Shown here: positions 7,697 to 23,725 of the stretch, piece by piece
Position numbering within the stretch: position 1 is the stretch's first letter
Layout: the number at the start of each line of letters is the position of its first letter
From: Pseudomonadota bacterium
GTDB lineage: Bacteria > Pseudomonadota > Alphaproteobacteria > Rhizobiales > Beijerinckiaceae
NCBI GenBank assembly: GCA_040756295.1
Contig: JBFLZN010000002.1
Coordinates: 640,102-704,101 of the forward strand
DNA length: 64,000 nt
Reading direction: 5' to 3'
Notes under the pieces: generated by a model
Database searches by the model: none
Seen by the model: only the letters and a program-made list of their open reading frames with translations
What the model was told of the DNA's origin: nothing
Made by a program: the position numbers and the translations under genes

Positions 7697-8308
7697 ATGC
7701 CAAAATATTTGCTGAGCCTGTTTGCGTTCATCGCTTTTGCTTTTGCGGCGTCAGGCGCCGAGGCGCAGCAAAAGTTCAATCTCGTCGAGAGCGTTCTCAA
7801 CGATCCGGCGACGCCGGTCGGCGGCAATCCGAAAGGCGACGTCAGCATTGTCGCCTTCCTCGATTATAATTGCCCCTATTGCCGCAAGGCGACGCCGGAT
7901 CTCGATAAAGTCGTCGCGGCCGACGGGCATGTGAAAGTCATCTACAAGGATTGGCCGATCCTCGCGCCCTCGTCGGTCGTTGCCGCAAAGGTCGCCATCG
8001 CCGCCAATTACCAGGGCAAATATCAAGAAGCGCATGATGCGCTGATGGCGATCAAGCTGCGCCCGGTGACTCTGCCCGCGATCAAGGCGGCCGTTCAATC
8101 TGCCGGCGTCGACATCGCGCAATTGGACAAGGACCTTGCCGCGCATAACGCCGACATCGGTGCCTTATTGCAGCGAAACATCGCCGAGGCCGATGCCTTG
8201 CATCTGCAAGGCACGCCGGTCTTTCTCGTCGGCCCTTATCTGATTGCCGGCGGTCTCGACCAGGCCGGCTTCCGCGGCGCTGTCGCGAAAGCCCGCGCGG
8301 CGAAATAG
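7697..8308 (+). CDS. DsbA family thiol-disulfide oxidoreductase
   Basis: Signal peptide; GNPKGDV, FLDYNCPYCRK (CXXC), GTP cis-Pro loop. Confidence 0.92.
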   Translation: MPKYLLSLFAFIAFAFAASGAEAQQKFNLVESVLNDPATPVGGNPKGDVSIVAFLDYNCPYCRKATPDLDKVVAADGHVKVIYKDWPILAPSSVVAAKVAIAANYQGKYQEAHDALMAIKLRPVTLPAIKAAVQSAGVDIAQLDKDLAAHNADIGALLQRNIAEADALHLQGTPVFLVGPYLIAGGLDQAGFRGAVAKARAAK

Positions 8309-10583: not shown

Positions 10584-12419
10584 ATGGCTGCGGCGGTGTT
10601 CATCACGCATTCCTCCCGCGACTATAAGCAATCGCGTGCCGTCGTCGACGTCCTCGAAAAGAACGGCCTCTCTTGCTGGATCTCCGAACGCGACATCGGG
10701 GCTGGCGACAATTATGGCGATGCGATCGTCGATGCGATCGAGAGCGCCAAAGTCATGGTGCTGGTTTTCTCCGCCAACGCCAATAATTCCGATGAGATCA
10801 AGAAGGAGATTGCGCTCGCGAGTCAGCGCAAGCTGACCGTCGTGCCGATCCGCATCGAGGATGCGACGCCGAGCAAGGCTTTCCGCTACGAATTGGTCAC
10901 GCGCAACTGGATCGATTGCTTCCCGGATTGGAACCAGGGCATGCAGACGCTGGTGCGCCGGGTTTCATCGATCATTGGCGATGCCAAACCGCTCGACGAC
11001 CTGCCGCAGCCAGTGCCGGTTCCCAAACCGCGGATCGAGCCGGCCTGGATTGCCGCGGCTGCGGCCGGCATCGTAGTCATTGCCGGCGGCGCCGCCTATA
11101 GTCTGCGGCCGCAGCCCGCACCCGTCACCATCACCCATAACGACGACAACGGCCAGATTGTCCCCGCCGCCTCGCGGCCGCAACAGGTTGCCGATGCCAC
11201 GGGGAACAAGCCGGCGGCGGGCAACGATGCCGCGACGGGCGACCATCCGGCCGCCGCGCCAAGCCCCGCCGCCGAAGTTCCGGCGCCGAAACCCACACCC
11301 ATCGCGCAGGCCGCCGCGCCAAAACCGGTCTCCATCGCGGAAGCCGACGCGCCGAGACCCGCCCCCGACACACAGGCGGAGGCGCCGAAACCCGCGCCGG
11401 ACACGCAGGCCGCGGCATCGCAGCCGACGCCTGTTGCCCAAGTGATCACACCCAAACCCGCGCCCATCGAACAAACCGCCGCGCCCAAACCGGCGCTCGC
11501 GCCGGCTATACCGAAGAAAACCCAGATCGCCGCGCTTGGCCCGGTCGTGCCGGTTCAGACGATTGCCCCGCCCGTTAAGCCCCTCCCAAGCAAGCCCGCG
11601 GCGCCGGCGATTTCGGACAAGCCGCCGGCGTATAATGCCGCGACGCCGGGCGGGCAGATCTTTCGCGAGTGCAAAGATTGTCCGCAGATGGTGGTGGTGC
11701 CGCGCGGCACGGCGATTTTGGGCTCGCCCGCGGGGGAGCCCGGCCGGCAGTCGAACGAAGCCGCGCCGCATAGCGTGACGATCGACAAGCCCTTTGCCGT
11801 CGGCCGTTATGCCGTGACGTTCGACGATTGGGCGGCCTGCGTCGCCGGTGGCGGCTGCAATGGCTATAAGCCCGACGACAACGGCTTTGGCCGCGGCAGG
11901 CGGCCAGTCATCTTCGTTTCGTGGAATGATGCCAATGCCTATGTCAATTGGCTCAAACACAAGACCGGGCAGCCCTATCGCTTGCTGAGCGAATCGGAAT
12001 GGGAATATGCAGCGCGCGGCTGCACCAAAGCCGATTGTCCCGATACACCGTTCTGGTTCGGCGACATTGCGCCCGATCTCGCAAACTATGATTCGCGCTA
12101 TTCCTATGAAGGCAGCCCGAAGGCGGACCACGAGGTCGCGACGGTGCCCGTCGATCAAGGCAAGCCCAATCCGTTCGGGCTCACCAATATGCTGGGCAAT
12201 GTCCAGCAATGGGTCGACGATTGCTGGAACGCCGATTTGAGCGCGCCGTCCGACGGCAGCGCCCTGCTCACCGGCGATTGCGGCGACCGGGTGATTCGTG
12301 GCGGCTCCTATTCCGACAAGCCGGACGCTCTGCGCGCTTCGGCACGCGCCTGGGACGCCGCGGATGATAGGGAATCACCCAATATTGGTATCCGCGTCGG
12401 ACGTACGCTTGCGCCGTGA
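10584..12419 (+). CDS. TIR domain - TM - Pro/Ala linker - FGE-sulfatase (SUMF1/C-lectin fold) protein
   Basis: GGAGAG RBS; N-term VFITHSSRD...CWISERDI..GD.Y...I.DAIE...FSANANNSDEIKKE (TIR); TM IAAAAAGIVVIAGGAAY; C-term FRECKDCPQMVVVP, LLSESEWEYAAR, NPFGL.NM.GNV.QW, RVIRGGS, IGIRV. Confidence 0.88.
   Translation: MAAAVFITHSSRDYKQSRAVVDVLEKNGLSCWISERDIGAGDNYGDAIVDAIESAKVMVLVFSANANNSDEIKKEIALASQRKLTVVPIRIEDATPSKAFRYELVTRNWIDCFPDWNQGMQTLVRRVSSIIGDAKPLDDLPQPVPVPKPRIEPAWIAAAAAGIVVIAGGAAYSLRPQPAPVTITHNDDNGQIVPAASRPQQVADATGNKPAAGNDAATGDHPAAAPSPAAEVPAPKPTPIAQAAAPKPVSIAEADAPRPAPDTQAEAPKPAPDTQAAASQPTPVAQVITPKPAPIEQTAAPKPALAPAIPKKTQIAALGPVVPVQTIAPPVKPLPSKPAAPAISDKPPAYNAATPGGQIFRECKDCPQMVVVPRGTAILGSPAGEPGRQSNEAAPHSVTIDKPFAVGRYAVTFDDWAACVAGGGCNGYKPDDNGFGRGRRPVIFVSWNDANAYVNWLKHKTGQPYRLLSESEWEYAARGCTKADCPDTPFWFGDIAPDLANYDSRYSYEGSPKADHEVATVPVDQGKPNPFGLTNMLGNVQQWVDDCWNADLSAPSDGSALLTGDCGDRVIRGGSYSDKPDALRASARAWDAADDRESPNIGIRVGRTLAP
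11349..11411 (+). repeat. Imperfect 33-nt tandem duplication (APxPAPDTQA) in TIR-FGE linker
   Basis: GCGCCGAGACCCGCCCCCGACACACAGGCG and GCGCCGAAACCCGCGCCGGACACGCAGGCC, 33 nt apart and in frame. Confidence 0.75.
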
Positions 12420-12467: not shown

Positions 12468-15191
12468 GTGATGTTGCAATTGCGAATGGGCCAGGCCGTC
12501 GGTGCGCTGGTGTTTTTGGGACTGATGAGTTTTGGCATGCTCGCTTCGGCGAGCAATGCGCAGGCCGAAACGCGCCGCGCCTTCATTCTCGGCATCCAAC
12601 GCTACACCGATGCCAATATCCAGAGCCTGACGCGGTCCAACGCCGATGCAGAGGATCTTGCCGGCGACCTGCAGGATCTCGGCTTCGACAAGAAGAACAT
12701 CACATTGGCCACCGATCTGCGGACGAAGGAGGATTTCGACAAGAAGTTCCAGGCCTTCCTCAAGACGATCGAAGAGGGTGATGACGTCTTCTTCTTCTTC
12801 TCCGGCCACGGCCTGGGGGTCGAGGCGACCGGCACGAATTACCTGCTGCTCGGCAATCTTAAGAGCCTCAAGACCTATACCCGCGCGCAATTGCTCGATT
12901 CCGACCGGCGCGACGACATTATCGCGCTGAAAATGCCGTCCTACGAAGGCCAATACGAAACCGATGAAATTCCGAAGGACGGGGTTTCGGCGTCGGACGT
13001 CATCCAGCAGATCGCCCAGAAGAAGCCCAAGGTCGCCTTCATCGTCCTCGACGCCTGCCGTTCGCTGCCGCCGGCAACGACCGACATCCGCACCTTGAAG
13101 CGCAGCGACACCTCCGGCAGCCGCCTGCTGCCGGATACGGACCTGCCGAACGGTTTCCTGGTGCTTTACTCGGCGTCCTTCGGCGAAACGGCGGTCGAGA
13201 GCTTTGGACCCACCGACAAACGCCGGAACTCCTTGTTCACCGAGGTGCTGCGCCAGGAGATGCAGCGGCCCGGCCAGACCCTGCCGCAATTGGCCGACCG
13301 CGCCAGGCTCGTCGTGCGGGCCTATGCGGCGAAAAACGGCTTCCAGCAGGACCCGGAAAATTTCAACAATCTTGCGACCGCCGGCGATTTCACCTTGGTC
13401 GGCTCGGTCGGTGCCGAGCGTTTCACTCTTTCGCAACAACAATGCGAGGGCGCGCAAGAGGATTGGGAGCAGGTCAGCCAGCGCCCGACGCGCGAGACGC
13501 TGGAACGCCACCGGCGCCGGTTTCGCGATTGCCCGACGGCCGAGCTCGCCCGCCGTGCGCTGGTCAATCTGATCAGCTCGCCGGAAGATACGACGACGAT
13601 CGCCATGCCGCTCAATCGCAATATCGACGATTGCGACCGGCTCGCCGCGGCGGACATCGACACGGCGCGTCCGCCGGAAGTGCCCGGCCTGCCGCTCGGC
13701 AAGATCGATTTCGACGCCGCTATCCCGGCTTGCCAGAAATCGATCGCGCATAACCCGCGGATTGCGCGCTTCCTTTATAATTACGGGCGCGCCGAGGAAG
13801 CCGCAGCGAACTCGATGCGGCCGGACGATCCGGCGCGGCAGGAGAAGCTGCTCGCCGCGCATGCGGCGTTCAAGGACGCCGCCGACCGGGGCTATGTCGC
13901 GGCGCTCTACAGCCTCGCGACACTCTATGATTACACCGAATCCGCGGATCTCGATCAGGACTTGGCCAACAAGGATCTGATCAAGGCGGCGAACCAGGAT
14001 TTCCCCGCCGCAATGTATGAGCTTGGCCTTCGCTATAAGAAGGGCCTGTTCGGCATCCAGGCGGATTTCGCGCAAGCCTATGATTGGATGGCCAAGGCGG
14101 CCGAGGCGGGGTCGGTCGCCGCGATGGTCGATGTCGCCGAGTCGCTTTGGTACGGCCAGGGCGTCAGCCCCAATCCGCGCCGCGCCGTCGAATGGGCGGA
14201 GCGCGCTGCCGACGCCGGTTCCGTCGATGCCAAGGTCGATCTCGGGGTCTTCTATTTCTGGGGCTACAAGATCGTGAACGACAATGGCGACGTCGACGAT
14301 GCCAAAAGCGTCCTGTCCGACGATTCGCTGGCGCTGCTATGGTTCGGGCGTGCGGCGCAGGCCAATAATGCCCAGGCGCAATATTATCTCGCGATCATGA
14401 TGGAGGCGGGCGACGGCCTGCCCATCGCCCAGGCGGAAATCGCGGCGCGCTATTACCGGCTCGCCGCCCATGGCGGCTACGAGGATGCGGAGATCGATCT
14501 TGCCGAGCGGCTGCGCTCGGGCCGGATTCTGGTCAATCCGGAGAATGGCGAGAACGAAGCCGTCGACCTCTTGTCGCGCGCGCTCAGCCAGGGCTCCGCC
14601 CGCGCAGCCTCCTATCTCGCTGAAATCTATCGCAACGGCGAATTTGGCCGGCCGAAGGATCCGCTGAAGGCCATGCAATACGCCTATCAGGCGATCAAGC
14701 TTTCGGTCGAGGCCGATCCGACGACGGAAGACGGCGATCCCTTCTTCGAGATCGATGCCGGCATCCTGCTCGCGGAAATGGCCGTGAACGGCGAGGCCAA
14801 CGATATCAACGGCCATTCCCTGCTGAACCCGGACGAAATCGACCGGCTGCAGAAGTTCTATGGCACAGTCAATCCGGATGTCCGCAAGGTCGAGGTCCGC
14901 AAGCTGGAAGTCCCGCTTGGCTGCAACGGCTATTACAGCCGCCACGGGACGCTCTGGGTCTGGGATTGGGGCCGCAAGGAATCGCCGACGGAGCCGCAGT
15001 TCCGTAGCATCGAGCGCCAGACCGGCTGTTACGACAACGAGACGCTCCGGCGCACGCTGATCGCGAGCTTCCTGGTGGCGCGGAAAACCAAGGTTCCTTT
15101 CGCCGATCTGATCTATCAGCAGATCAAGGAGGCGCGGGAGACGGTCGACAATAGTCAGTCGGCCTCGCCCCGGCGTCACCATCGCTATTGA
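12468..15191 (+). CDS. Exported caspase-like protease (peptidase C14) with Sel1-like repeats
   Basis: Signal peptide (..ASNAQA); RRAFILGIQRY, FFFSGHG (His), VLDACRS (Cys); repeated A...LG..Y..G.G helical Sel1 units; exact start uncertain (GTG 12468/ATG 12471). Confidence 0.9.
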   Translation: MMLQLRMGQAVGALVFLGLMSFGMLASASNAQAETRRAFILGIQRYTDANIQSLTRSNADAEDLAGDLQDLGFDKKNITLATDLRTKEDFDKKFQAFLKTIEEGDDVFFFFSGHGLGVEATGTNYLLLGNLKSLKTYTRAQLLDSDRRDDIIALKMPSYEGQYETDEIPKDGVSASDVIQQIAQKKPKVAFIVLDACRSLPPATTDIRTLKRSDTSGSRLLPDTDLPNGFLVLYSASFGETAVESFGPTDKRRNSLFTEVLRQEMQRPGQTLPQLADRARLVVRAYAAKNGFQQDPENFNNLATAGDFTLVGSVGAERFTLSQQQCEGAQEDWEQVSQRPTRETLERHRRRFRDCPTAELARRALVNLISSPEDTTTIAMPLNRNIDDCDRLAAADIDTARPPEVPGLPLGKIDFDAAIPACQKSIAHNPRIARFLYNYGRAEEAAANSMRPDDPARQEKLLAAHAAFKDAADRGYVAALYSLATLYDYTESADLDQDLANKDLIKAANQDFPAAMYELGLRYKKGLFGIQADFAQAYDWMAKAAEAGSVAAMVDVAESLWYGQGVSPNPRRAVEWAERAADAGSVDAKVDLGVFYFWGYKIVNDNGDVDDAKSVLSDDSLALLWFGRAAQANNAQAQYYLAIMMEAGDGLPIAQAEIAARYYRLAAHGGYEDAEIDLAERLRSGRILVNPENGENEAVDLLSRALSQGSARAASYLAEIYRNGEFGRPKDPLKAMQYAYQAIKLSVEADPTTEDGDPFFEIDAGILLAEMAVNGEANDINGHSLLNPDEIDRLQKFYGTVNPDVRKVEVRKLEVPLGCNGYYSRHGTLWVWDWGRKESPTEPQFRSIERQTGCYDNETLRRTLIASFLVARKTKVPFADLIYQQIKEARETVDNSQSASPRRHHRY

Positions 15192-15271: not shown

Positions 15272-16459
15272 ATGGCTGCACGGCGAGCAAATCTTTTGAG
15301 AACATCCAGCCTTGTTGCTGCGTGTACATTTGCGTTGAGCATTTTTGCCGCTGCTGCGCCGACACCGGCGCAGGCGCAGTTCGGCTCCTTCTTCCGTCAT
15401 TTTTTTGGCGGCGGCGGCGGCGGTGGGCACCACCGCTCCCACCACTATGTGCGGCGGCATCGCCCCTCAGGTGGCGGCGAAAATAATAATGATGAGGAGG
15501 ATGATTCGTCTTCATCGGCGCCGTCGGATGCGGATTCGACGCGCGAACTCGCCAAGCTGGCGCCGCCGGCGCGCGAGCAGCTTGCGCTGCTCAAAAACGT
15601 CAACGCCAGCGATTCACTCGGCGCGGTCGGATCGTCGGACGATCAGGACAGTTCCAATTCGGCCAGCAACGAGGCCGATCGCGATTACACCACCATGGTC
15701 GATCAGCTCATTCAGACGCTGAAATCGCGGCTTGGCGATTCCGATCGTGAAGGGGATGTGACCGAGACCGCGGTCATGGATGCGCTCACGGAAGCGATCC
15801 TGCAGGCCAAGCTCGAACGATTCGAGACCTTCATCGGCGAGAACTGGTCGGCCGAGCGCTTGCGCGGCATGATCATCAAGCGCGTCACCGACGAGCTCGG
15901 CGGCCTGTTCGAGGGCAACAATCGCGGCGCGGTCTCGATGGCCGACCTCAGCATGATGATCAAAAAAGCGGCGCGCGAGGTTTATTCCCGCCTGTTCGAG
16001 ACGTCGGAACTGCTCGCCTCGAACCGCAGCGCCACGCTTTTCGTGCAGCGGCTCTATCAGTCGCGCGGCGATCTCGTGAAGGGCGATGTCCGCGAGGATA
16101 CGGAGGAACTGCTGCTGAAGGCGTCCTCGGAGGGGATTGCGCATTTCCGCGACCAGTTCAACCGCGCCGACCATCCCTATACGCTGATCTACCGGGCGCA
16201 GCGGATCATCTTCGATTGCCTTTCCGACAGCGTCGAATCGATCACGGAATCCGGCGCCGGGATGGCCTCGACGGCGGAGATCGAGAAGCGCCTTGTCGAC
16301 AAAGATCAGAAGCAATGCACGAAATGGGTCTCAAACCAGATGATCGGACCTGACGGCGGCCTGAAGAAGCAGGAGCCGATGCCGCTGCGCGTCATCTGGA
16401 CCTCGGGCGGCCCGCAGGAAGACCCGAGCATGTACGGGCACGCGTCGGATCAAAGCTGA
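15272..16459 (+). CDS. Exported hypothetical protein with Gly/His-rich and acidic low-complexity N-region
   Basis: GGGAGAG RBS; signal peptide ending AQA; GGGGGGHHRSHH and NNNDEEDDSSSS tracts; helical remainder. Confidence 0.75.
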   Translation: MAARRANLLRTSSLVAACTFALSIFAAAAPTPAQAQFGSFFRHFFGGGGGGGHHRSHHYVRRHRPSGGGENNNDEEDDSSSSAPSDADSTRELAKLAPPAREQLALLKNVNASDSLGAVGSSDDQDSSNSASNEADRDYTTMVDQLIQTLKSRLGDSDREGDVTETAVMDALTEAILQAKLERFETFIGENWSAERLRGMIIKRVTDELGGLFEGNNRGAVSMADLSMMIKKAAREVYSRLFETSELLASNRSATLFVQRLYQSRGDLVKGDVREDTEELLLKASSEGIAHFRDQFNRADHPYTLIYRAQRIIFDCLSDSVESITESGAGMASTAEIEKRLVDKDQKQCTKWVSNQMIGPDGGLKKQEPMPLRVIWTSGGPQEDPSMYGHASDQS

Positions 16460-16494: not shown

Positions 16495-17811
16495 CTATCG
16501 CCCGACGGAGATCGACGGCGTCAGCGGCTGCCGCGTCTCGGGTACGGCCTGGATGGTCACAATCTCGTTCAGCAGAGCGAAATTGGCTTTCGAGACGAGA
16601 TCGTCATTGTCGATCCAATACCAGATGCCGCGTTTATTGACCGAGACATAGGCATTTTCCGGCGCCTCGGGGCTTTGTTCCACGATGATGAAGGCGCGGT
16701 GCGTGTCGCGCCAGATCGCCCGGGTGCGGATATCCTGATCGATCCGCGGGAAGAGCGCGTCGGAGAGATACGTGTTCCACATCAGGTTCACTTCATCCTG
16801 CACGAGATGCGGCGGATTGAAGTAGAACATATTCGCATTGACCCGGCAGGGCGCCGCATTGTTCAGCGCGCGGATTTCTGCCGCCTCTTCCGGCGCGGCG
16901 AAATGGATCGCATCGACCTCGCCCTCCTTTAACGCGCCGATGGCGGAGCGGGTGGTGAAGAAGAAATTCGGCGATGCCGCGCCGCGCAGCGTGATCACAT
17001 TCGCTGACGATTCCGGATAAAGCTGCCGCAGCCCGTTCCAAAGCTTGGCGACCGTGACTTCCGGCGCCGGCGCCTGATCCATGAAGGGACAAGCGGGCCC
17101 AGCGATGCCGCGGCTCGGATGCAGGGCTTCGTTGTGCAGGATGACGTTCAAATTTTGCTTTGACGCATCGTCGCTGGCGCCGCGCGCCGGCGGGTCCTCG
17201 GCCTTTGAGCGGCCGTGCCCGCGCCCGCCGGGCATGTCCTCGAGGCCCGCCGCAAGCACGATCGCGCCGAATTGGTCGAGCAGCACCATGCGATCCTGCG
17301 CGACGAAATTGTCCATATAGCCCGGCGCCAGACGGTCGACCGAGAATTCGAGAACATTGGCGAGGCCGAAATCGGAATTGAACATGCGCACGATCGATTC
17401 CGGTGCGATCGGCGAGGAGACCTGCTGGATCAGCGGATAGCCCTGCACCGGGGCGTAGCGGACGAGCGCGGAATCGCCATAGGTGAACGTGCCGGAGACC
17501 GCGCCGACTTGGCCGGCAATCGTTCCAGCGCTGGTCGAATGCAAGCCCGGCTGCGCGCCGAGGCCGGAAAGGCCGCCGTTGACGCCGGTGTTGAACGACA
17601 CCGTCGCATCGGCTTCAGAAACATCGATGAAATTGGGCGTCTCGTAATTCTTCGCCCTGACGATATTCAGCAATAATTGTTCGGACGACGTATCGTGAAT
17701 GACTTCATTATAAAATGTGCGGCTTGCCGTGATCGAAGGCGGTCCGGTCAAGGAGCCGCAGCCCGACATGAGGCTTACGCCGGCCAGCGCAATCCAGCCG
17801 AATTTCCGCAT
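16495..17811 (-). CDS. Putative lipoprotein, unknown function
   Basis: MRK + hydrophobic core + lipobox-like MSG-C; YNEVI...SEQLLLNIVRA...P.FIDV segment. Confidence 0.75.
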   Translation of the reverse strand: MRKFGWIALAGVSLMSGCGSLTGPPSITASRTFYNEVIHDTSSEQLLLNIVRAKNYETPNFIDVSEADATVSFNTGVNGGLSGLGAQPGLHSTSAGTIAGQVGAVSGTFTYGDSALVRYAPVQGYPLIQQVSSPIAPESIVRMFNSDFGLANVLEFSVDRLAPGYMDNFVAQDRMVLLDQFGAIVLAAGLEDMPGGRGHGRSKAEDPPARGASDDASKQNLNVILHNEALHPSRGIAGPACPFMDQAPAPEVTVAKLWNGLRQLYPESSANVITLRGAASPNFFFTTRSAIGALKEGEVDAIHFAAPEEAAEIRALNNAAPCRVNANMFYFNPPHLVQDEVNLMWNTYLSDALFPRIDQDIRTRAIWRDTHRAFIIVEQSPEAPENAYVSVNKRGIWYWIDNDDLVSKANFALLNEIVTIQAVPETRQPLTPSISVGR

Positions 17812-18076: not shown

Positions 18077-20059
18077 ATGCCGCTTTCACCTGAACCCGAT
18101 CACCAGGCCAATGCCGGCGCCAAGCCGCGGCTGGCGTTTCGCGTCGGCGTCACCGGCACGCAGGCTTTGCCCCCCGGCCGGCTCGTCGATCTCACCGCTA
18201 AGGTGAGAGCCGTGCTGCAGCACATTCACAGCGAGATCGCCGCGCTCGCCGATCATCCGGCGCTTGCGCAATATTATGCACGCGAAGGCAGTGCTTTGCA
18301 GCCGCCGCTTTTGCGGATCATCTCGCCGCTCGCGCGCGGCGCCGACCGGCTGGTCGCCAAGGAAGCGCTCGCGCTCGGCTATGCGCTGAATGTGCCGATG
18401 CCGTTTTCGCGCGACGAATATGAGCGCGATTTCAAACCGCCGAATGCGCCGCCGACGGCCGTGTCGGAAAACCTTGAAGAGTTTCGCGCGCTTTTCGCGC
18501 GCGCCGGCGACAATTGGATCGCGCTTGACGGTGACCGCGAAACAGCCGACGCCGCCTATGAGGCGGCCGGCGAATTCGTCGTGCGCAACAGCGATATTGT
18601 CATCGCCATCTGGGATGGCGGCCAGGGAAACGGGCGTGGCGGCACGCGGGATATCGTGCATTTTGCTGCGAAGGCCGGTGTTCCTGTCTGGTGGATCCAC
18701 GCGACGCAAGCCGTCGAGCCGCAATGGATCGCCGACATCCAGGACTTACGCGATCCGGTGATTGGGCCGAAGCCGCGAGACAAGCTCGACGCCTATCTGC
18801 GCCAGCAGATCCGGCCGCCGAAGCCGGTCTTGCGGGAACGCCATTCCTGGCTGTCTGCTTTGGCGTTCCCGCCCGCTGCGGCCGACGATCCCGCCGGCGA
18901 TTATTTCGCCGAGGCGCCGCTGCCGTCCTACGGCGTGTGGAAGCTTTACAGCCGTATGATGCTCTTTGCGTCGGGCTGCAAGCCGCCCTGGACGCCGCCG
19001 GTGAAGCCGCAGAACGAGCCCGGCGCCTACTGGTTTCAATTTTACGCGCCGGCCGATGCGCGCGCCGGCGAATATGCGACGCGCTATCGGTCGAGCTATG
19101 TCTGGGTTTTCCTGCTCGCGACCTGCTCGCTGTTGTTCGGTGCGCTCGCCAGCATGTTCCACGGCCGCGAGGTCGTGCTTTTCTCGATCCTCGGATTTGG
19201 CGTGACCGGCCGCGTCGCTGTTATCGTTTTCGCGATGGCCGAGCTCGTCGCCCTCGTCGCCATATTGACAATCGCGCTCATGGCCTTGCGCGACGACTGG
19301 CATGTGCGTTCGATCGAATATCGTCTGCTTGCCGAGCTTTGCCGCAAGCAACAGGTGCTGGCGCCGCTGGGGCGGGCGCTGTCTTTCGGTGCGGTCCAGC
19401 AGCTCGCGACGCTGATGCGGGACGGCGAGGCGGGTTCCCCGGCGCCGGGGCATGCTAGTCCGTCGGAGCTTGCGGCGGAGGGCGACCGGTCCGGCTGGGT
19501 CAGCTGGCTGTTCATGGCCTATCAGCGCGCCGCCTTGATGCCGCGCGGCACGATCGCCCATCTCTTCTTGCTCGGTGTCCGCAATCAAGACGTGTTGCAC
19601 GATCTTGTCGAAGAGCAGCTCGAATATCATAGTGGCCGCGCCAAAATGGCCGGCGGCGCGGCGAAGTTTTTTGAACATAACGGCGAGCGCATTTTCGGCA
19701 TCGTCCTCTTTTGCGTGTTCTTCAAAATCATCTTGACCTTGCTCGCGAGCTCGCCGCTGACGCCGCTCGACGATTGGGTGACGGCGACCCTCGGTCTTCT
19801 CGGCGTGATCCTGCCAGCTCTGTCCGCTGCGGCGGTCGGCATCGGCAGCTATGCGGAATGGCAGCTTCTGGCCGAGGAATCGAACCACATGCTCGAACTC
19901 TTGAAACTGGCGAAGCAGCGGATCGACCGCATCAATCTGAAGCGTCCGCTGGCCTCGCAGGATTTGGGCGCCGAGGCCGATGCCGTCGCCTCGCTGATGC
20001 TGCAGGATTTGGAAGGCTGGCAACGGCTGTTCCGCGTGAAAATCATCGAGACGCAATGA
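18077..20059 (+). CDS. SLOG (YspA/DprA/LOG-like) domain fused to two SLATT/DUF4231-like transmembrane modules
   Basis: FRVGVTG, SPLARGADRLVA, DIVIAIWDG....GGTRDIV (SLOG); AD..A..YA..YR + TM pair + W....IEYRLLAELCR; second EQLEYH + TM pair + LPALSAA, LM..DL..WQ.LF. Confidence 0.75.
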   Translation: MPLSPEPDHQANAGAKPRLAFRVGVTGTQALPPGRLVDLTAKVRAVLQHIHSEIAALADHPALAQYYAREGSALQPPLLRIISPLARGADRLVAKEALALGYALNVPMPFSRDEYERDFKPPNAPPTAVSENLEEFRALFARAGDNWIALDGDRETADAAYEAAGEFVVRNSDIVIAIWDGGQGNGRGGTRDIVHFAAKAGVPVWWIHATQAVEPQWIADIQDLRDPVIGPKPRDKLDAYLRQQIRPPKPVLRERHSWLSALAFPPAAADDPAGDYFAEAPLPSYGVWKLYSRMMLFASGCKPPWTPPVKPQNEPGAYWFQFYAPADARAGEYATRYRSSYVWVFLLATCSLLFGALASMFHGREVVLFSILGFGVTGRVAVIVFAMAELVALVAILTIALMALRDDWHVRSIEYRLLAELCRKQQVLAPLGRALSFGAVQQLATLMRDGEAGSPAPGHASPSELAAEGDRSGWVSWLFMAYQRAALMPRGTIAHLFLLGVRNQDVLHDLVEEQLEYHSGRAKMAGGAAKFFEHNGERIFGIVLFCVFFKIILTLLASSPLTPLDDWVTATLGLLGVILPALSAAAVGIGSYAEWQLLAEESNHMLELLKLAKQRIDRINLKRPLASQDLGAEADAVASLMLQDLEGWQRLFRVKIIETQ

Positions 20060-21927
20060 CCGGCGAAGCTCCTCCTCACGATGTCGGGGCGGCGCTTGAT
20101 CAAGTCTTTGCCGATCTTGCGGCCAATCGGCCGGAGGCCGGGATCGCCGCGCAATTGCGCAGCCTCGAAGCCTCCTGCCAGGCGCCGCTGCCGATCCGTG
20201 CGCGTTATCTGAATGCCCGCGGCCTGGTGATGAACCGCATGGGCCAGCGCAGCGAGGCGCTCGGCGACCTGCTCGAATCCGCCGCGCTCTACGCGCAAAT
20301 CGGCGACGCGGCGGGCGCCGCGCAAATTCTGCGGGCCATTGCGCTTGTCCATGCCTGGCGCAGCGATGCGCGCGAATCCGCGTTGGCACTTCTGCGTGCG
20401 ATCAGCGAGGCGAGCGACGACCGCGTCAATGTCGCTCTGTCGCTGTTCGAGGCTGGCCGGCTCGAAGTCGAGATCGGACGGCCGCGCGATGCCTATCGCT
20501 TTTTCGAACGCGGGCTTGCGATCGGTGCCGAGGCGCCGCCGCCGCTTGAGCGCGACCGCGCCCGGATCGGCGCCTTGCAGGCGCTTGTCGCGGCGCGCGA
20601 CATTGCCGCCGCGCAAGCCGCTGCGGCGGATTTGAATCTCGATCGTCTTGCGACACCGCGGCTGCAACATCTGGCGCGGATCGAGCGCGCGCGGATTGCT
20701 TTGGCGCAAAGCGATTTCGCCGTGGCGGACTCGATCCTCGCGGAGATCCGCGCCGGCCTGCCGGCAGACCCGGAAAAATTCGAACATGCCGAATATGCCC
20801 ACGCCGAAGCGGAATCGCTCTTCGCGCGCAAATCGTATCCCGACGCGCTGAAGACGATCGGCGCGGTCATCGCCCGTTATGCCGACGACAATCTGCCGGG
20901 GCGCGAGATCAGCGCCCGCTTGCTGGAAAGCCAGATTTTCGATGCGCTCGACCGTGCCGAGGAGGCTGATCGCACTTTGGCAGCGGCGTTACGGCGGGCG
21001 GTCGCGGCCAATCTGCCGGGCCATGCCGATACGGTGCGCGAGCGGCTTGCGGCGCGCGGCCGCTCGCAGAATGTTTGGGCGCCGGGACTGTCTTTGGCCT
21101 CATCCAATCTGAGTTCCGCCGATCGTTTCGTCCGCCGCAAGCCGCTTGGGGCCGGCGGCTTCGGTTCGGTCAGCCGTGCCTATGATCTCGAACTCGGCAC
21201 CGAGGTCGCGCTGAAGAACCTCCGTTTGAAGGCGATCTACGACAGCGCCGTGCTCACGGAACGGCGTCGCGCCGCGGAGATGGAAGTCGCCGCCGCCTCG
21301 CGCATCCAGCATCCGGGCGTCGGGCGCGTCTATGGATTGCTCGATGAGCCCGACGGCGATGCGCTGCTCGCCCGCGAACTCGTCGAAGGCCCGACCTTGC
21401 GCGAGGCGATGCAAACCAAGCTGCATCTTGCCGAGAAGATCGGCCTCATGGCGCAATTGGCGCATTGCCTGGCGGCGATCCACGCGGCGGGGATCGTCCA
21501 TCGCGATTTGAAGCCGGAGAATGTCGTGCTGCGCGACGGCGTCTCGCCGGTCATCATCGATTTCGGCATCAGCGCCATCGGCCATGTCTGGCAGAGCAAG
21601 GATGCGCCGAAGACGCTGAATTATGCGGCGCCGGAACAGACGAAAGCCGGCTGGGCGGACGCGCGCAGCGACATTTATGCGATGGGCGTCATCGCCTATG
21701 AGATTTTGCGAGGGTGCCTGCCGCCGCCCGCGCCCATGGGCCTCGCGTCGGTCTTTGATGGCCGCGGCAAAACCATCGACGGCGATTTGCGCGCGGCCGG
21801 CGCTCCCGCCGCCGTTGCGGGCCTCGTCGCGCAGATGCTGGCGGCATCGCCACGCCGGCGGCCGCAGGCGGCGCGCGACATTGCGCTGGCGCTGCAGACG
21901 GCGCTCGCCGACATCCGGACGGCTTGA
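20056..21927 (+). CDS. Hanks-type Ser/Thr kinase with N-terminal TPR-like helical domain
   Basis: LGAGGFGSV, VALK, HRDLKPEN, DFG, YAAPE, SDIYAMG; ATGA start/stop overlap with upstream gene. Confidence 0.9.
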   Translation: MTGEAPPHDVGAALDQVFADLAANRPEAGIAAQLRSLEASCQAPLPIRARYLNARGLVMNRMGQRSEALGDLLESAALYAQIGDAAGAAQILRAIALVHAWRSDARESALALLRAISEASDDRVNVALSLFEAGRLEVEIGRPRDAYRFFERGLAIGAEAPPPLERDRARIGALQALVAARDIAAAQAAAADLNLDRLATPRLQHLARIERARIALAQSDFAVADSILAEIRAGLPADPEKFEHAEYAHAEAESLFARKSYPDALKTIGAVIARYADDNLPGREISARLLESQIFDALDRAEEADRTLAAALRRAVAANLPGHADTVRERLAARGRSQNVWAPGLSLASSNLSSADRFVRRKPLGAGGFGSVSRAYDLELGTEVALKNLRLKAIYDSAVLTERRRAAEMEVAAASRIQHPGVGRVYGLLDEPDGDALLARELVEGPTLREAMQTKLHLAEKIGLMAQLAHCLAAIHAAGIVHRDLKPENVVLRDGVSPVIIDFGISAIGHVWQSKDAPKTLNYAAPEQTKAGWADARSDIYAMGVIAYEILRGCLPPPAPMGLASVFDGRGKTIDGDLRAAGAPAAVAGLVAQMLAASPRRRPQAARDIALALQTALADIRTA

Positions 21928-22003
21928 ATGCTCTATCGCGCCCGCCGCCGATTTTGCTAGAACGTGACCATTGCTGAGGCAGAACGGCATCGGGAGCCGA
22001 CGC

Positions 22004-23725
22004 TTGCTGACGATCAAGCATATCGATGGGCCGCTGGCCGGTCAGGAGCAGACGATCTCCGACGATCTCGGCCAGGTCACCATCGGTCGCGATCCCGACC
22101 GCTGCCAGATCGTCTATCCGCCGGAGAGCACGATCGTCGGGCGCGTGCATTGCGCGTTGCTGCATCAGCCTTCCGGCGATTGGGCGATTGAGACTTACGG
22201 CGATCATTATGTCGACGTTGACGGCGAGCCGGTCGAGGCGCGCCATGCGCTTTCCAGCGGCGCCAAAATCCGTCTCGGCCGCCGCGACGGACCAAGTTTT
22301 ACAGCGAGCGTCGCACGCGATGCGGCGAGCTCCGATCTCGGTGTCACCGGGGCTCAGCAAAAGCAGGTTTCGGTGCGCCACCTCATCCGCCGCGACGTGC
22401 GGATCGCGATGGGCGTGGTCGCTTTGGCGATCGTCGCCGGTCTTGGCACACTGTTTTACAACAAGGTGCAGAGCGACCGGATTCGCCAGCGGCTCGACCG
22501 TTCGGCCTTCCTTGTCGAAATCCGGCACCGGCCCGATGGCTGTCCGGATTGGGACGCGACCGCCTGGCCGGTCGGCCGCGATCTGCTTGTCACCAATGCG
22601 CATGTCGTCGACGAGGCGGGCAGCGGCACGATGCTGGTGCGCGCGCCCGGACCCGACGGCAAGGAATATGAAGTCATCGGTAGCGCCCTGCATCCGGGTT
22701 ACAAGGCTTTCACCGACTTCGTCCGCAAGCAGGATCTCGTCAAATGGGATGCCGGCCAGATCGAGACGCCGCCCACCGGCCTTGCCTATGATGTCGCGCT
22801 GTTGCGGGTCAAAGGGCCCTTGCCGGAGGATTCGATCCTGCCGCTCGCCGCCCGCAGCGATGTCGAATCCTTGTGGAAGGGGATGCAGATCGAGAGCGAG
22901 GGTTATCCCAGCCAGAATGTTGCTGGCGCAAGCGTGCTGGGTTGCGGCGCGACGCCGAAATACCGCGCCGGGGTGATCGAAAGCCTGACCGATTATTTCT
23001 CCTCGGCGCAGCAGGACCCGAAGGAAACGCTGCTCGTGACGCATAATATCCCGATCACCTGCGGGGCCAGCGGCAGCCCGGTCATCGGCGAGGATGGCAA
23101 AGTCGTTGCCGTCGTCAGCGCCTTCAGTTCGACCGGCGGCCAATGCACACCGAGCGCGGTGCTGATCAATTACGCGCAGCGCGCGGATATTGTCGCCGAT
23201 TTGATCGATGGCCGCGCCGAGGATGCGCTCAATCGCGATCGGCACTATTGGCTATCGCAATTGGCGATGCTGCATGCCGCGGGTTACGAGCCGGGCAACA
23301 AAATCTATATTCCGCTGATCCTGCGAGCCGACAAGGCGAGCGCGGGCGTGGATGCCCATGCCGAACCGGCGCTCGATCTTCGCGCGCCGGGAGTTCTCGC
23401 GGCAGATGCCAAGTTAGGCGCTAACTCCGGAGCGGCAACCGCAGTGACGCCGCTGACGCTCACCGCCGGCCAGCATTATGTGCTCGTCGCTTATGCGGAA
23501 GATGAGACGCCGATTGCGCTGACCTTGCGCGGCAAGAACGGCACCGCCGTCGCCTTCACCGATCCGCTGTCCGCAAACAGCGTCTGGTATCCGTCGCTGA
23601 CTTTTGCGCCGGCGGCCAATGGCCAATATCAGGCGACTGTCAGCGGCGCGACCGCAGGGATCAAATATATCCTGCGGCTTTATCGCTGGACGATACCCGC
23701 CCCGTCAGCCGAAACGCACCGATAG
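22004..23725 (+). CDS. FHA domain - TM - trypsin-like serine protease - C-terminal beta-sandwich (PPC-like)
   Basis: VTIGRDP..C...VGRVHC (FHA-like); TM IAMGVVALAIVAGLGTLFY; triad TNAHVV / YDVALL / CGASGSPV; GGGAG RBS before TTG 22004 (ORF open from 21971). Confidence 0.8.
   Translation: MLTIKHIDGPLAGQEQTISDDLGQVTIGRDPDRCQIVYPPESTIVGRVHCALLHQPSGDWAIETYGDHYVDVDGEPVEARHALSSGAKIRLGRRDGPSFTASVARDAASSDLGVTGAQQKQVSVRHLIRRDVRIAMGVVALAIVAGLGTLFYNKVQSDRIRQRLDRSAFLVEIRHRPDGCPDWDATAWPVGRDLLVTNAHVVDEAGSGTMLVRAPGPDGKEYEVIGSALHPGYKAFTDFVRKQDLVKWDAGQIETPPTGLAYDVALLRVKGPLPEDSILPLAARSDVESLWKGMQIESEGYPSQNVAGASVLGCGATPKYRAGVIESLTDYFSSAQQDPKETLLVTHNIPITCGASGSPVIGEDGKVVAVVSAFSSTGGQCTPSAVLINYAQRADIVADLIDGRAEDALNRDRHYWLSQLAMLHAAGYEPGNKIYIPLILRADKASAGVDAHAEPALDLRAPGVLAADAKLGANSGAATAVTPLTLTAGQHYVLVAYAEDETPIALTLRGKNGTAVAFTDPLSANSVWYPSLTFAPAANGQYQATVSGATAGIKYILRLYRWTIPAPSAETHR

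Follow-up and report, generated by a model that had tools for sequence, protein, structure and literature searches.

What does an exported caspase-like protease do when its gene lies directly downstream of a gene for a TIR-domain protein? The question is raised by the gene at 12468..15191 (+) in a window of 64,000 nucleotides (nt), the whole stretch of DNA that we analyzed, from a bacterium of the Beijerinckiaceae (contig JBFLZN010000002.1, positions 640,102 to 704,101). Its product combines a caspase domain, a Sel1 array and a C-terminal DUF2610 domain, and we refer to it as caspase-Sel1. The reading that we favor, at a probability of roughly 55%, is that it is a periplasmic Arg/Lys-specific protease that docks the partners encoded in its own gene cassette and serves an accessory conflict or envelope-surveillance system; within this reading, the P1 specificity, the docking by Sel1 and DUF2610, the identity of the substrate and the conflict role are what we infer.

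The open reading frame (ORF) runs from GTG 12468 to the TGA stop at 15189-15191 and encodes 907 amino acids (aa). ATG 12471 is a likelier start (906 aa), because homologues open with Met and are 905-906 aa long. A first-pass annotation, made from the DNA letters, had described a caspase-like protease with an intact SGHG/DACR dyad, and both points held when the protein was compared with its relatives. Residues 36-299 matched Peptidase_C14 (PF00656) with 73.4 bits against a cut-off of 21.4, and the catalytic residues His114 (nt 12807-12809) and Cys197 (nt 13056-13058), which lie in SGHG and D-A-C contexts, were invariant in 64 homologues. An AlphaFold2 (AF2) model built on these 64 homologues was confident and compact, with a mean predicted local distance difference test (pLDDT) score of 88.5 and a predicted template modeling (pTM) score of 0.86. 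In the model, residues 36-307 (12573..13388, +) form a protease domain with the caspase/hemoglobinase fold, mostly at pLDDT above 90. The best Foldseek match of this domain was the Arg-specific MALT1 paracaspase (3v4o_A, E 3e-9, TMt 0.79), and matches to MALT1 and caspase-9 had E values from 3e-9 to 1e-6. A PDB sequence search with the caspase half alone gave no match, and a PDB profile search gave weak metacaspase matches only (TbMCA2 and AtMC4, E ~0.02).

The acidic candidates for the S1 pocket, Asp60, Asp195 and Glu240/Glu244, were also invariant in the 64 homologues. In the weak profile alignment with TbMCA2 (E ~0.02), SGHG was placed onto YSGHG and Asp60 onto the Asp of 'CCND', which we take to be the S1-pocket residue Asp95, and D195-A-C197 corresponds to the D-x-C motif of metacaspases and MALT1. 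In MCA2 and MALT1, specificity for Arg/Lys comes from the S1 Asp together with a second Asp, two positions ahead of the catalytic Cys, both of which line the pocket. Because the acidic residues are invariant and Asp60 aligns in this way with TbMCA2, caspase-Sel1 likely cleaves after Arg or Lys, that is, with a basic P1. It is probably catalytically active, since the dyad and the acidic pocket residues are invariant across several families.

The short helical motif that the annotation had pointed out, EDWEQV...FRDCPTAELARRAL, is present at 13443..13577 (+). The AF2 model folded it into a three-helix unit at residues 329-370 (helices 329-338, 342-351 and 356-370), a linker bracketed by the invariant Cys326 and Cys355. 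The long Sel1 array, which had likewise been noticed, follows at 13710..14786 (+; residues 415-773) as a solenoid of about nine helical hairpins in the model; it matched PF08238 with 87.7 bits (cut-off 30.7), and Pfam scored three of the hairpins on their own. A PDB profile search matched this part to 6ok3 (E 7.5e-68), and Foldseek matched it to LceB, LpnE and HcpC. The C-terminal domain (14829..15164, +; residues 788-899) does contain Cys residues, as described, but it is not 'unknown': residues 811-890 matched DUF2610 (PF11020), a named, uncharacterized family, with 27.6 bits against a cut-off of 21, spanning positions 2-80 of the 81 in the family model, and with 32.8 bits in a genome scan. 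The model gave a β-hairpin (811-831) carrying a WVWDWGR motif, followed by three helices (841-899). No PDB sequence matched this domain, and among 151 genomes of the order the only DUF2610 found was the window's own copy.

Export had been proposed on the basis of a signal peptide, and several features agree with it. Residues 1-33 (12468..12566, +) read as a Sec-type signal peptide: the n-region contains a single Arg, the hydrophobic core is 17 residues long, and A-Q-A precedes Glu34 at the predicted cleavage site. The layout and the AxA site were kept in 17 of 17 aligned homologues, whose mature proteins begin with (E/Q)TRRAF, and in the AF2 model these residues had pLDDT below 50. Six Cys residues are conserved in the family, four of them (326, 355, 389 and 422) in every aligned sequence and two (819 and 854) in nearly all. 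They read naturally as the pairs 326/355, 389/422 and 819/854, predicted disulfides that would fit an oxidizing compartment. Because the signal-peptide pattern, the paired Cys residues and the periplasmic Sel1 relatives (MotX, AlgK, HcpC and LpnE) point in the same direction, caspase-Sel1 is probably exported to the periplasm.

We then consider the gene upstream of caspase-Sel1, whose TGA stop (12417-12419) lies 48 nt before the GTG, exactly the gap that had been reported. This gene (10584..12419, +) encodes a TIR domain, one transmembrane (TM) helix, a Pro/Ala-rich stalk and a PvdO/FGE-fold domain. Its start is probably ATG 10584, because homologues begin with MAAAVFITHSS. Pfam detected TIR_2 (75.8 bits) and FGE-sulfatase (155 bits), and the TM helix spans residues 169-187 of the long ORF, so that the TIR domain is predicted on the cytoplasmic side and the FGE domain in the periplasm. 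The best NCBIfam match of the FGE domain was PvdO, below its cut-off. The domain has no Cys in the RGGSYSDKPDALRASAR segment, which we take to be the place where catalytic FGEs carry their Cys pair. Because this pair is absent and PvdO is the best match, the domain is best read as a non-catalytic, C-type-lectin-like binding domain.

To map the cassette, one genome per species was scanned, which yielded 66 loci; every named one belongs to the Hyphomicrobiales. The window's neighboring genes were then searched for in these loci by tblastn. The order FGE-domain gene, caspase-Sel1 gene, homologue of the gene at 15272 was kept in nearly all of them, with the FGE-domain gene directly upstream in about 58 of 66 and the 15272-type gene directly downstream in 62 of 66. 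Only these two neighbors travel with caspase-Sel1; the outer flanks are common to the closest relatives only. Caspase-Sel1 and the upstream gene are probably co-transcribed, given the short gap and the conserved order; a promoter and terminator scan of the DNA gave counts not above those in shuffled sequence and was uninformative on this point. A functional tie between caspase-Sel1, which is single-copy in its own genome, and its cassette neighbors is well supported by this gene order.

The first-pass annotation had linked caspase-Sel1 to the TIR gene in particular. Conserved adjacency bears out the link to the upstream gene, but the constant partner is the PvdO/FGE-fold domain, and TIR is not obligatory. 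Upstream ORFs were extracted and 50 were scanned with Pfam: FGE-sulfatase was found in 50/50, TIR_2 in 24/50 and Peptidase_C14 in 26/50. In partners of the TIR class, a single hydrophobic helix separates the TIR and FGE domains. Those of the caspase class have an N-terminal signal-type helix only, so both of their domains are presumably exported, and all of them retain xGHG and DACR. Home-built hidden Markov models (HMMs) agreed with this division, with one locus (L019) unassigned because it matched neither HMM. When partner class was mapped onto a tree of 51 caspase-Sel1 proteins, at least three changes were required, compared with a mean of 14 for shuffled labels, and one switch separates sister Roseiarcus clades with 100% support. 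In a clade resembling Methylovirgula ligni (L002, L003 and L004), the FGE gene has been lost, and caspase-Sel1 and the 15272-type gene are retained. These results indicate that TIR is one of two interchangeable outputs on the FGE partner. Because 26 of the 50 partners carry a caspase instead and one clade has no FGE gene, caspase-Sel1 cannot depend on TIR signaling. Obligate pairing with TIR was accordingly rejected: in 26/50 cassettes the FGE partner bears a caspase (together with a TIR in the case of L040), and three loci have no partner.

Two kinds of locus depart from the common layout. At L040:4943-7852 (+), a caspase, a TIR domain, one TM helix and an FGE domain apparently lie in a single reading frame, possibly a transitional form linking the two cassette classes, or else an ORF that was extended too far. 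In the partner-less loci L002, L003 and L004, the caspase-Sel1 and 15272-type genes directly follow a bestrophin-like gene.

The third gene of the cassette (15272..16459, +) encodes a secreted protein made up of a signal peptide, a disordered spacer and a helical bundle of ~250 aa with two conserved Cys residues. Across the family, the signal peptide ends in ...PxPAxAQ before FG. The spacer that follows, of ~50-85 residues, passes from a Gly-rich, hydrophobic part with GGxxGG-type stretches through an Arg/His-rich part to an acidic, Ser-rich part. In the 23 of 37 aligned family sequences whose spacers could be delimited by script, the spacer contains at least four Arg/Lys, with medians of 6 Arg/Lys and 10 Gly. 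The ~250-aa domain carries the two conserved Cys residues and a conserved tail, ...RVIW..GP.DDPSMYG. In an AF2 model of the window's protein, residues 1-132 were disordered and residues ~135-390 formed a confident helical bundle, for which Foldseek found nothing in the PDB better than E 0.38. A relaxed Pfam search (E up to 5) with this protein and two homologues gave noise-level matches only, and PADLOC gave no match for it.

A disordered, basic segment beside a protease predicted to be specific for basic residues makes the spacer the most economical substrate hypothesis. Caspase-Sel1 probably cuts either this Arg-rich, disordered N-terminus or the stalk of the FGE receptor, a proposal for which the evidence is circumstantial. 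The first-pass annotation had suggested processing of the TIR receptor ectodomain or of neighboring exported proteins; its observations are confirmed, and its interpretation is supported in part. The mechanism that we propose is as follows. Caspase-Sel1 would be a Sec-exported, catalytically competent cysteine protease of clan CD, of the orthocaspase/paracaspase type, with the Sel1 solenoid and DUF2610 as the most plausible docking surface for partners and substrates. It and the 15272 protein would be the constant components of a periplasmic cassette of three genes, the first of which would contribute an FGE binding domain wired either through a TM helix to a cytoplasmic TIR, as here, or to a second exported caspase. 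In the periplasm, the Sel1/DUF2610 scaffold would hold a cassette partner, and the caspase domain would then cut a basic, disordered segment. The 15272 protein, with its Gly/Arg-rich N-terminal spacer, offers the best candidate site, the Pro/Ala/Lys stalk of the FGE receptor is the alternative, and the cut would switch the output of the FGE-domain protein on or off.

Four further genes lie downstream of the cassette. A lipoprotein gene (16495-17811, -; lipobox LMSGC) converges with the 15272 gene; its product had no PADLOC match and only noise-level matches in a relaxed Pfam search (E up to 5). L001 and L005 encode clear homologues of the lipoprotein, and L035, L037 and L049 encode weaker ones (37-43%). 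Next comes a gene for a 660-aa membrane protein (18077-20059, +) that reads like an N-terminal SLOG domain joined to a C-terminal multi-TM SLATT domain. PADLOC did not match this protein, and its sole Pfam match, DUF4231 at E 2.7, is non-significant, compatible with SLATT without being evidence for it. A homologue of the 18077 protein lay no more than 8 kb from the cassette in 9 of 23 loci of the TIR class, compared with 1 of 25 of the caspase class (Fisher p=0.004; p 0.016 once the window's two closest relatives were collapsed). This enrichment fits a route from TIR to SLOG on the cytoplasmic side. It also indicates that such a route would belong to the TIR partner and not to caspase-Sel1.

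Further downstream lie genes for a TPR protein with a Ser/Thr kinase domain (19711-21927, +), with strong PADLOC matches to PD-T4-6-type kinases (E 3.6e-48), and for an FHA protein with a trypsin-like protease domain (21971-23725, +); the same pair is found near the cassette in L001, L005 and L052. A gene for a DsbA-like thioredoxin (7697-8308, +) lies 4 kb upstream of the Cys-rich exported cassette, but it is syntenic in close relatives only and its proximity is probably coincidental. Elsewhere in the same genome, outside the window, the only other C14 protein is encoded at C1:1574266-1574898 (-). It is an exported pseudo-caspase, in which AGRG replaces SGHG and DGAR replaces DACR (His to Arg and Cys to Gly); its short helical repeats resemble the linker of caspase-Sel1, and its tail is long and rich in Pro and Lys.

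We found more than 120 full-length homologues of caspase-Sel1 with the same three Pfam domains and 50-97% identity. Those with names come from Methylovirgula, Roseiarcus, Alsobacter, Beijerinckiaceae and Bradyrhizobium, all Hyphomicrobiales. An orthologue was present in 3 of 301 genomes of the order, in 6 of 201 of the family (4 of 53 genera) and in 3 of 6 of the genus. This patchy distribution, together with the repeated exchange of TIR and caspase, led us to favor an accessory conflict or surveillance role over a core envelope function.

Several observations weigh against that preference. Many phage sensors are hypervariable, but here both the FGE domain and the caspase show good conservation, with 50-67% identity across families. 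The caspase-Sel1 tree broadly tracks taxonomy, a pattern also compatible with an envelope function that is specific to the lineage and frequently lost. No shift in sequence composition was seen in the window, and the three close relatives that have no FGE gene indicate that the caspase-Sel1/15272 pair can persist alone. Known defense-gene models gave no strong match to the caspase, the PADLOC 'caspase' model reaching only 36 bits over part of the domain. The literature that we searched held no biochemical or genetic data on any member of the family, and both the localization and the disulfide pairing are predictions.

Among the alternatives, taken here from the most to the least probable, the first is lineage-specific periplasmic housekeeping, in which the protease matures or turns over an envelope component, for example a peptidoglycan-associated or secretion-related protein as for other bacterial Sel1 proteins, and the FGE and 15272 proteins are ordinary cofactors with no conflict role. 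Full-length purifying conservation is strong (mean column identity of 54-62% over the whole length of caspase-Sel1), the tree largely matches taxonomy at the family level, no mobile-element genes were seen around the cassette, nor any composition shift, and the structural relatives of the Sel1 part include the periplasmic scaffolds MotX, AlgK and HcpC. However, presence in so few genomes of the order, and in only half of those of the genus, is unlike a core envelope function. The FGE partner bears death- or immune-type modules (TIR or caspase) that have been swapped at least three times, and TIR-class cassettes are enriched for the SLOG-SLATT-like neighbor, as given above. We consider this explanation unlikely, though it deserves to be taken seriously.

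A more elaborate version of cassette signaling would follow the logic of Spaetzle and Toll. In the periplasm, caspase-Sel1 would cut the secreted 15272 protein, a pro-ligand whose pro-region is disordered and Gly/Arg-rich, the matured ligand would bind the lectin-like FGE ectodomain of the single-pass receptor, and a nucleotide made by the cytoplasmic TIR domain would signal to the SLOG-SLATT-like effector; in sister cassettes, the same front end would drive the second periplasmic caspase. As a complete chain, this is speculative, and we hold it to be distinctly improbable.

An involvement in inter-bacterial antagonism appears still more doubtful. Here the 15272 protein would be a pro-toxin or bacteriocin-like protein with a Gly-zipper-like N-terminus, activated by the caspase, and the FGE protein would be a receptor or immunity factor. 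The signal peptide, Gly-rich stretches and basic and acidic low-complexity segments of the 15272 protein do resemble a pro-peptide layout, and a basic P1 is predicted for the protease. Yet we saw no secretion system, immunity-gene pattern or polymorphic C-terminus; the conserved part of the protein is its helical domain rather than a variable toxin tip, its fold had no match to known toxins, and Pfam gave no glycine-zipper match at E up to 5.

That the caspase fold serves as a binding module, and the whole protein as a non-catalytic adaptor, is very improbable. Pseudo-caspases are common in Alphaproteobacteria, and the genome itself holds the exported example described above, but the 64 homologues of caspase-Sel1, drawn from several families, show no variation at His114, at Cys197 or at the acidic residues of the pocket. 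Least probable of all, and in our view hardly tenable, is direct activation of the caspase by a nucleotide signal from the neighboring TIR, followed by degradation of cellular proteins as in type IV Thoeris: a TIR_2 gene 48 nt upstream of a caspase-like gene satisfies the two-gene search rule for that system and both proteases are Arg-specific (predicted or known), but the signal peptide and Cys pairs place this caspase on the opposite side of the membrane to the TIR, TIR is absent from half of the cassettes, the window's TIR belongs to a TM-FGE fusion and is not a short soluble protein, and Pfam found no nucleotide-binding domain in the caspase protein.

The preferred reading, of an exported protease docked to its cassette partners, bears on bacterial immunity in several ways. 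The immune-role bacterial caspase-like proteases that we reviewed, such as that of type IV Thoeris, act in the cytoplasm, and here the periplasm is predicted. The module that alternates on the FGE partner is either a TIR or a caspase, and these are the two hallmark domains of innate immunity and cell death in eukaryotes. If envelope surveillance or trans-envelope signaling is indeed its role, the cassette would add an extracytoplasmic proteolytic step to bacterial TIR signaling, offer a tractable three- or four-gene system for signal transfer across the inner membrane to a TIR domain, and assign a function to DUF2610 and the 15272 protein family for the first time.

We finally compared the cassette with known systems, and begin with type IV Thoeris, in which a short TIR is paired with ThsE, a cytoplasmic, Arg-specific caspase-like protease that is activated by N7-cADPR (Rousset et al., 10.1101/2024.10.24.620036). 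As in that system, a TIR gene adjoins a caspase-like gene, at a distance of 48 nt, and the protease is predicted to be Arg-directed. In contrast, the caspase of this cassette bears Sel1 and DUF2610 and is predicted to leave the cytoplasm, the TIR forms the cytoplasmic end of a receptor with a TM helix and an FGE domain, and TIR is swapped for a caspase in half of the cassettes. Because the protease is exported, a cytoplasmic nucleotide signal could not reach it. Membership of type IV Thoeris was rejected, as the two proteins are predicted to lie in different compartments and TIR is dispensable. Two further assignments were also rejected. The NCBIfam model for EACC1-associated caspases (NF047832) scored 43.8 bits against a cut-off of 140 and covered residues 36-128 only, and a gasdermin and caspase system was dismissed after Pfam, at E up to 5, found no gasdermin match in the neighbors at 15272-16459, 16495-17811 and 18077-20059.

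In fold, the protease domain (residues ~36-307) is most like MALT1; the weak profile matches to TbMCA2 and AtMC4 align the S1 Asp and the SGHG His. It differs from MALT1 and the metacaspases in its low identity (~15%), in having none of their death, Ig or p10-linker architectures, and in being bacterial and predicted to be exported. The Sel1 solenoid is like those of LpnE, LceB, HcpC, MotX and AlgK, which serve as protein-docking scaffolds of the envelope, but no protease and no DUF2610 domain is attached to any of them.

With orthocaspases and metacaspases, caspase-Sel1 shares the Peptidase_C14 domain, the His-Cys dyad and the predicted basic P1. In a catalogue of prokaryotic caspase homologues, Sel1 (6% of sequences) and FGE-sulfatase (4.9%) rank among the most frequent accessory domains, and N-terminal hydrophobic helices are read as likely signal peptides (Asplund-Samuelsson et al. 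2012, PMC3501461); surveys of cyanobacteria list DUF2610 and Sel1 for two orthocaspases each (PMC7475262, PMC8283722). As a set of domains, the architecture is thus already catalogued. Those surveys give domain combinations only, and what sets the present family apart is its fixed cassette; the three-gene arrangement, the alternation of TIR and caspase and the 15272 family were not described in the literature that we searched.

The FGE partner has its closest parallels in STAND sensors (PMC13581612) and in the FGS (FGE-sulfatase-fold) sensor domains of conflict systems, which are viewed as binding domains and in which the variable effector module is always N-terminal (Kaur et al. 2020, PMC7159879). 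Although the present cassette has no vWA-MoxR, STAND NTPase or diversity-generating retroelement (DGR), and its FGE domain is conserved and predicted to be periplasmic, the TIR or caspase module of the partner always stands N-terminal to the FGE domain, the same 'syntax' as in FGS proteins (PMC7159879).

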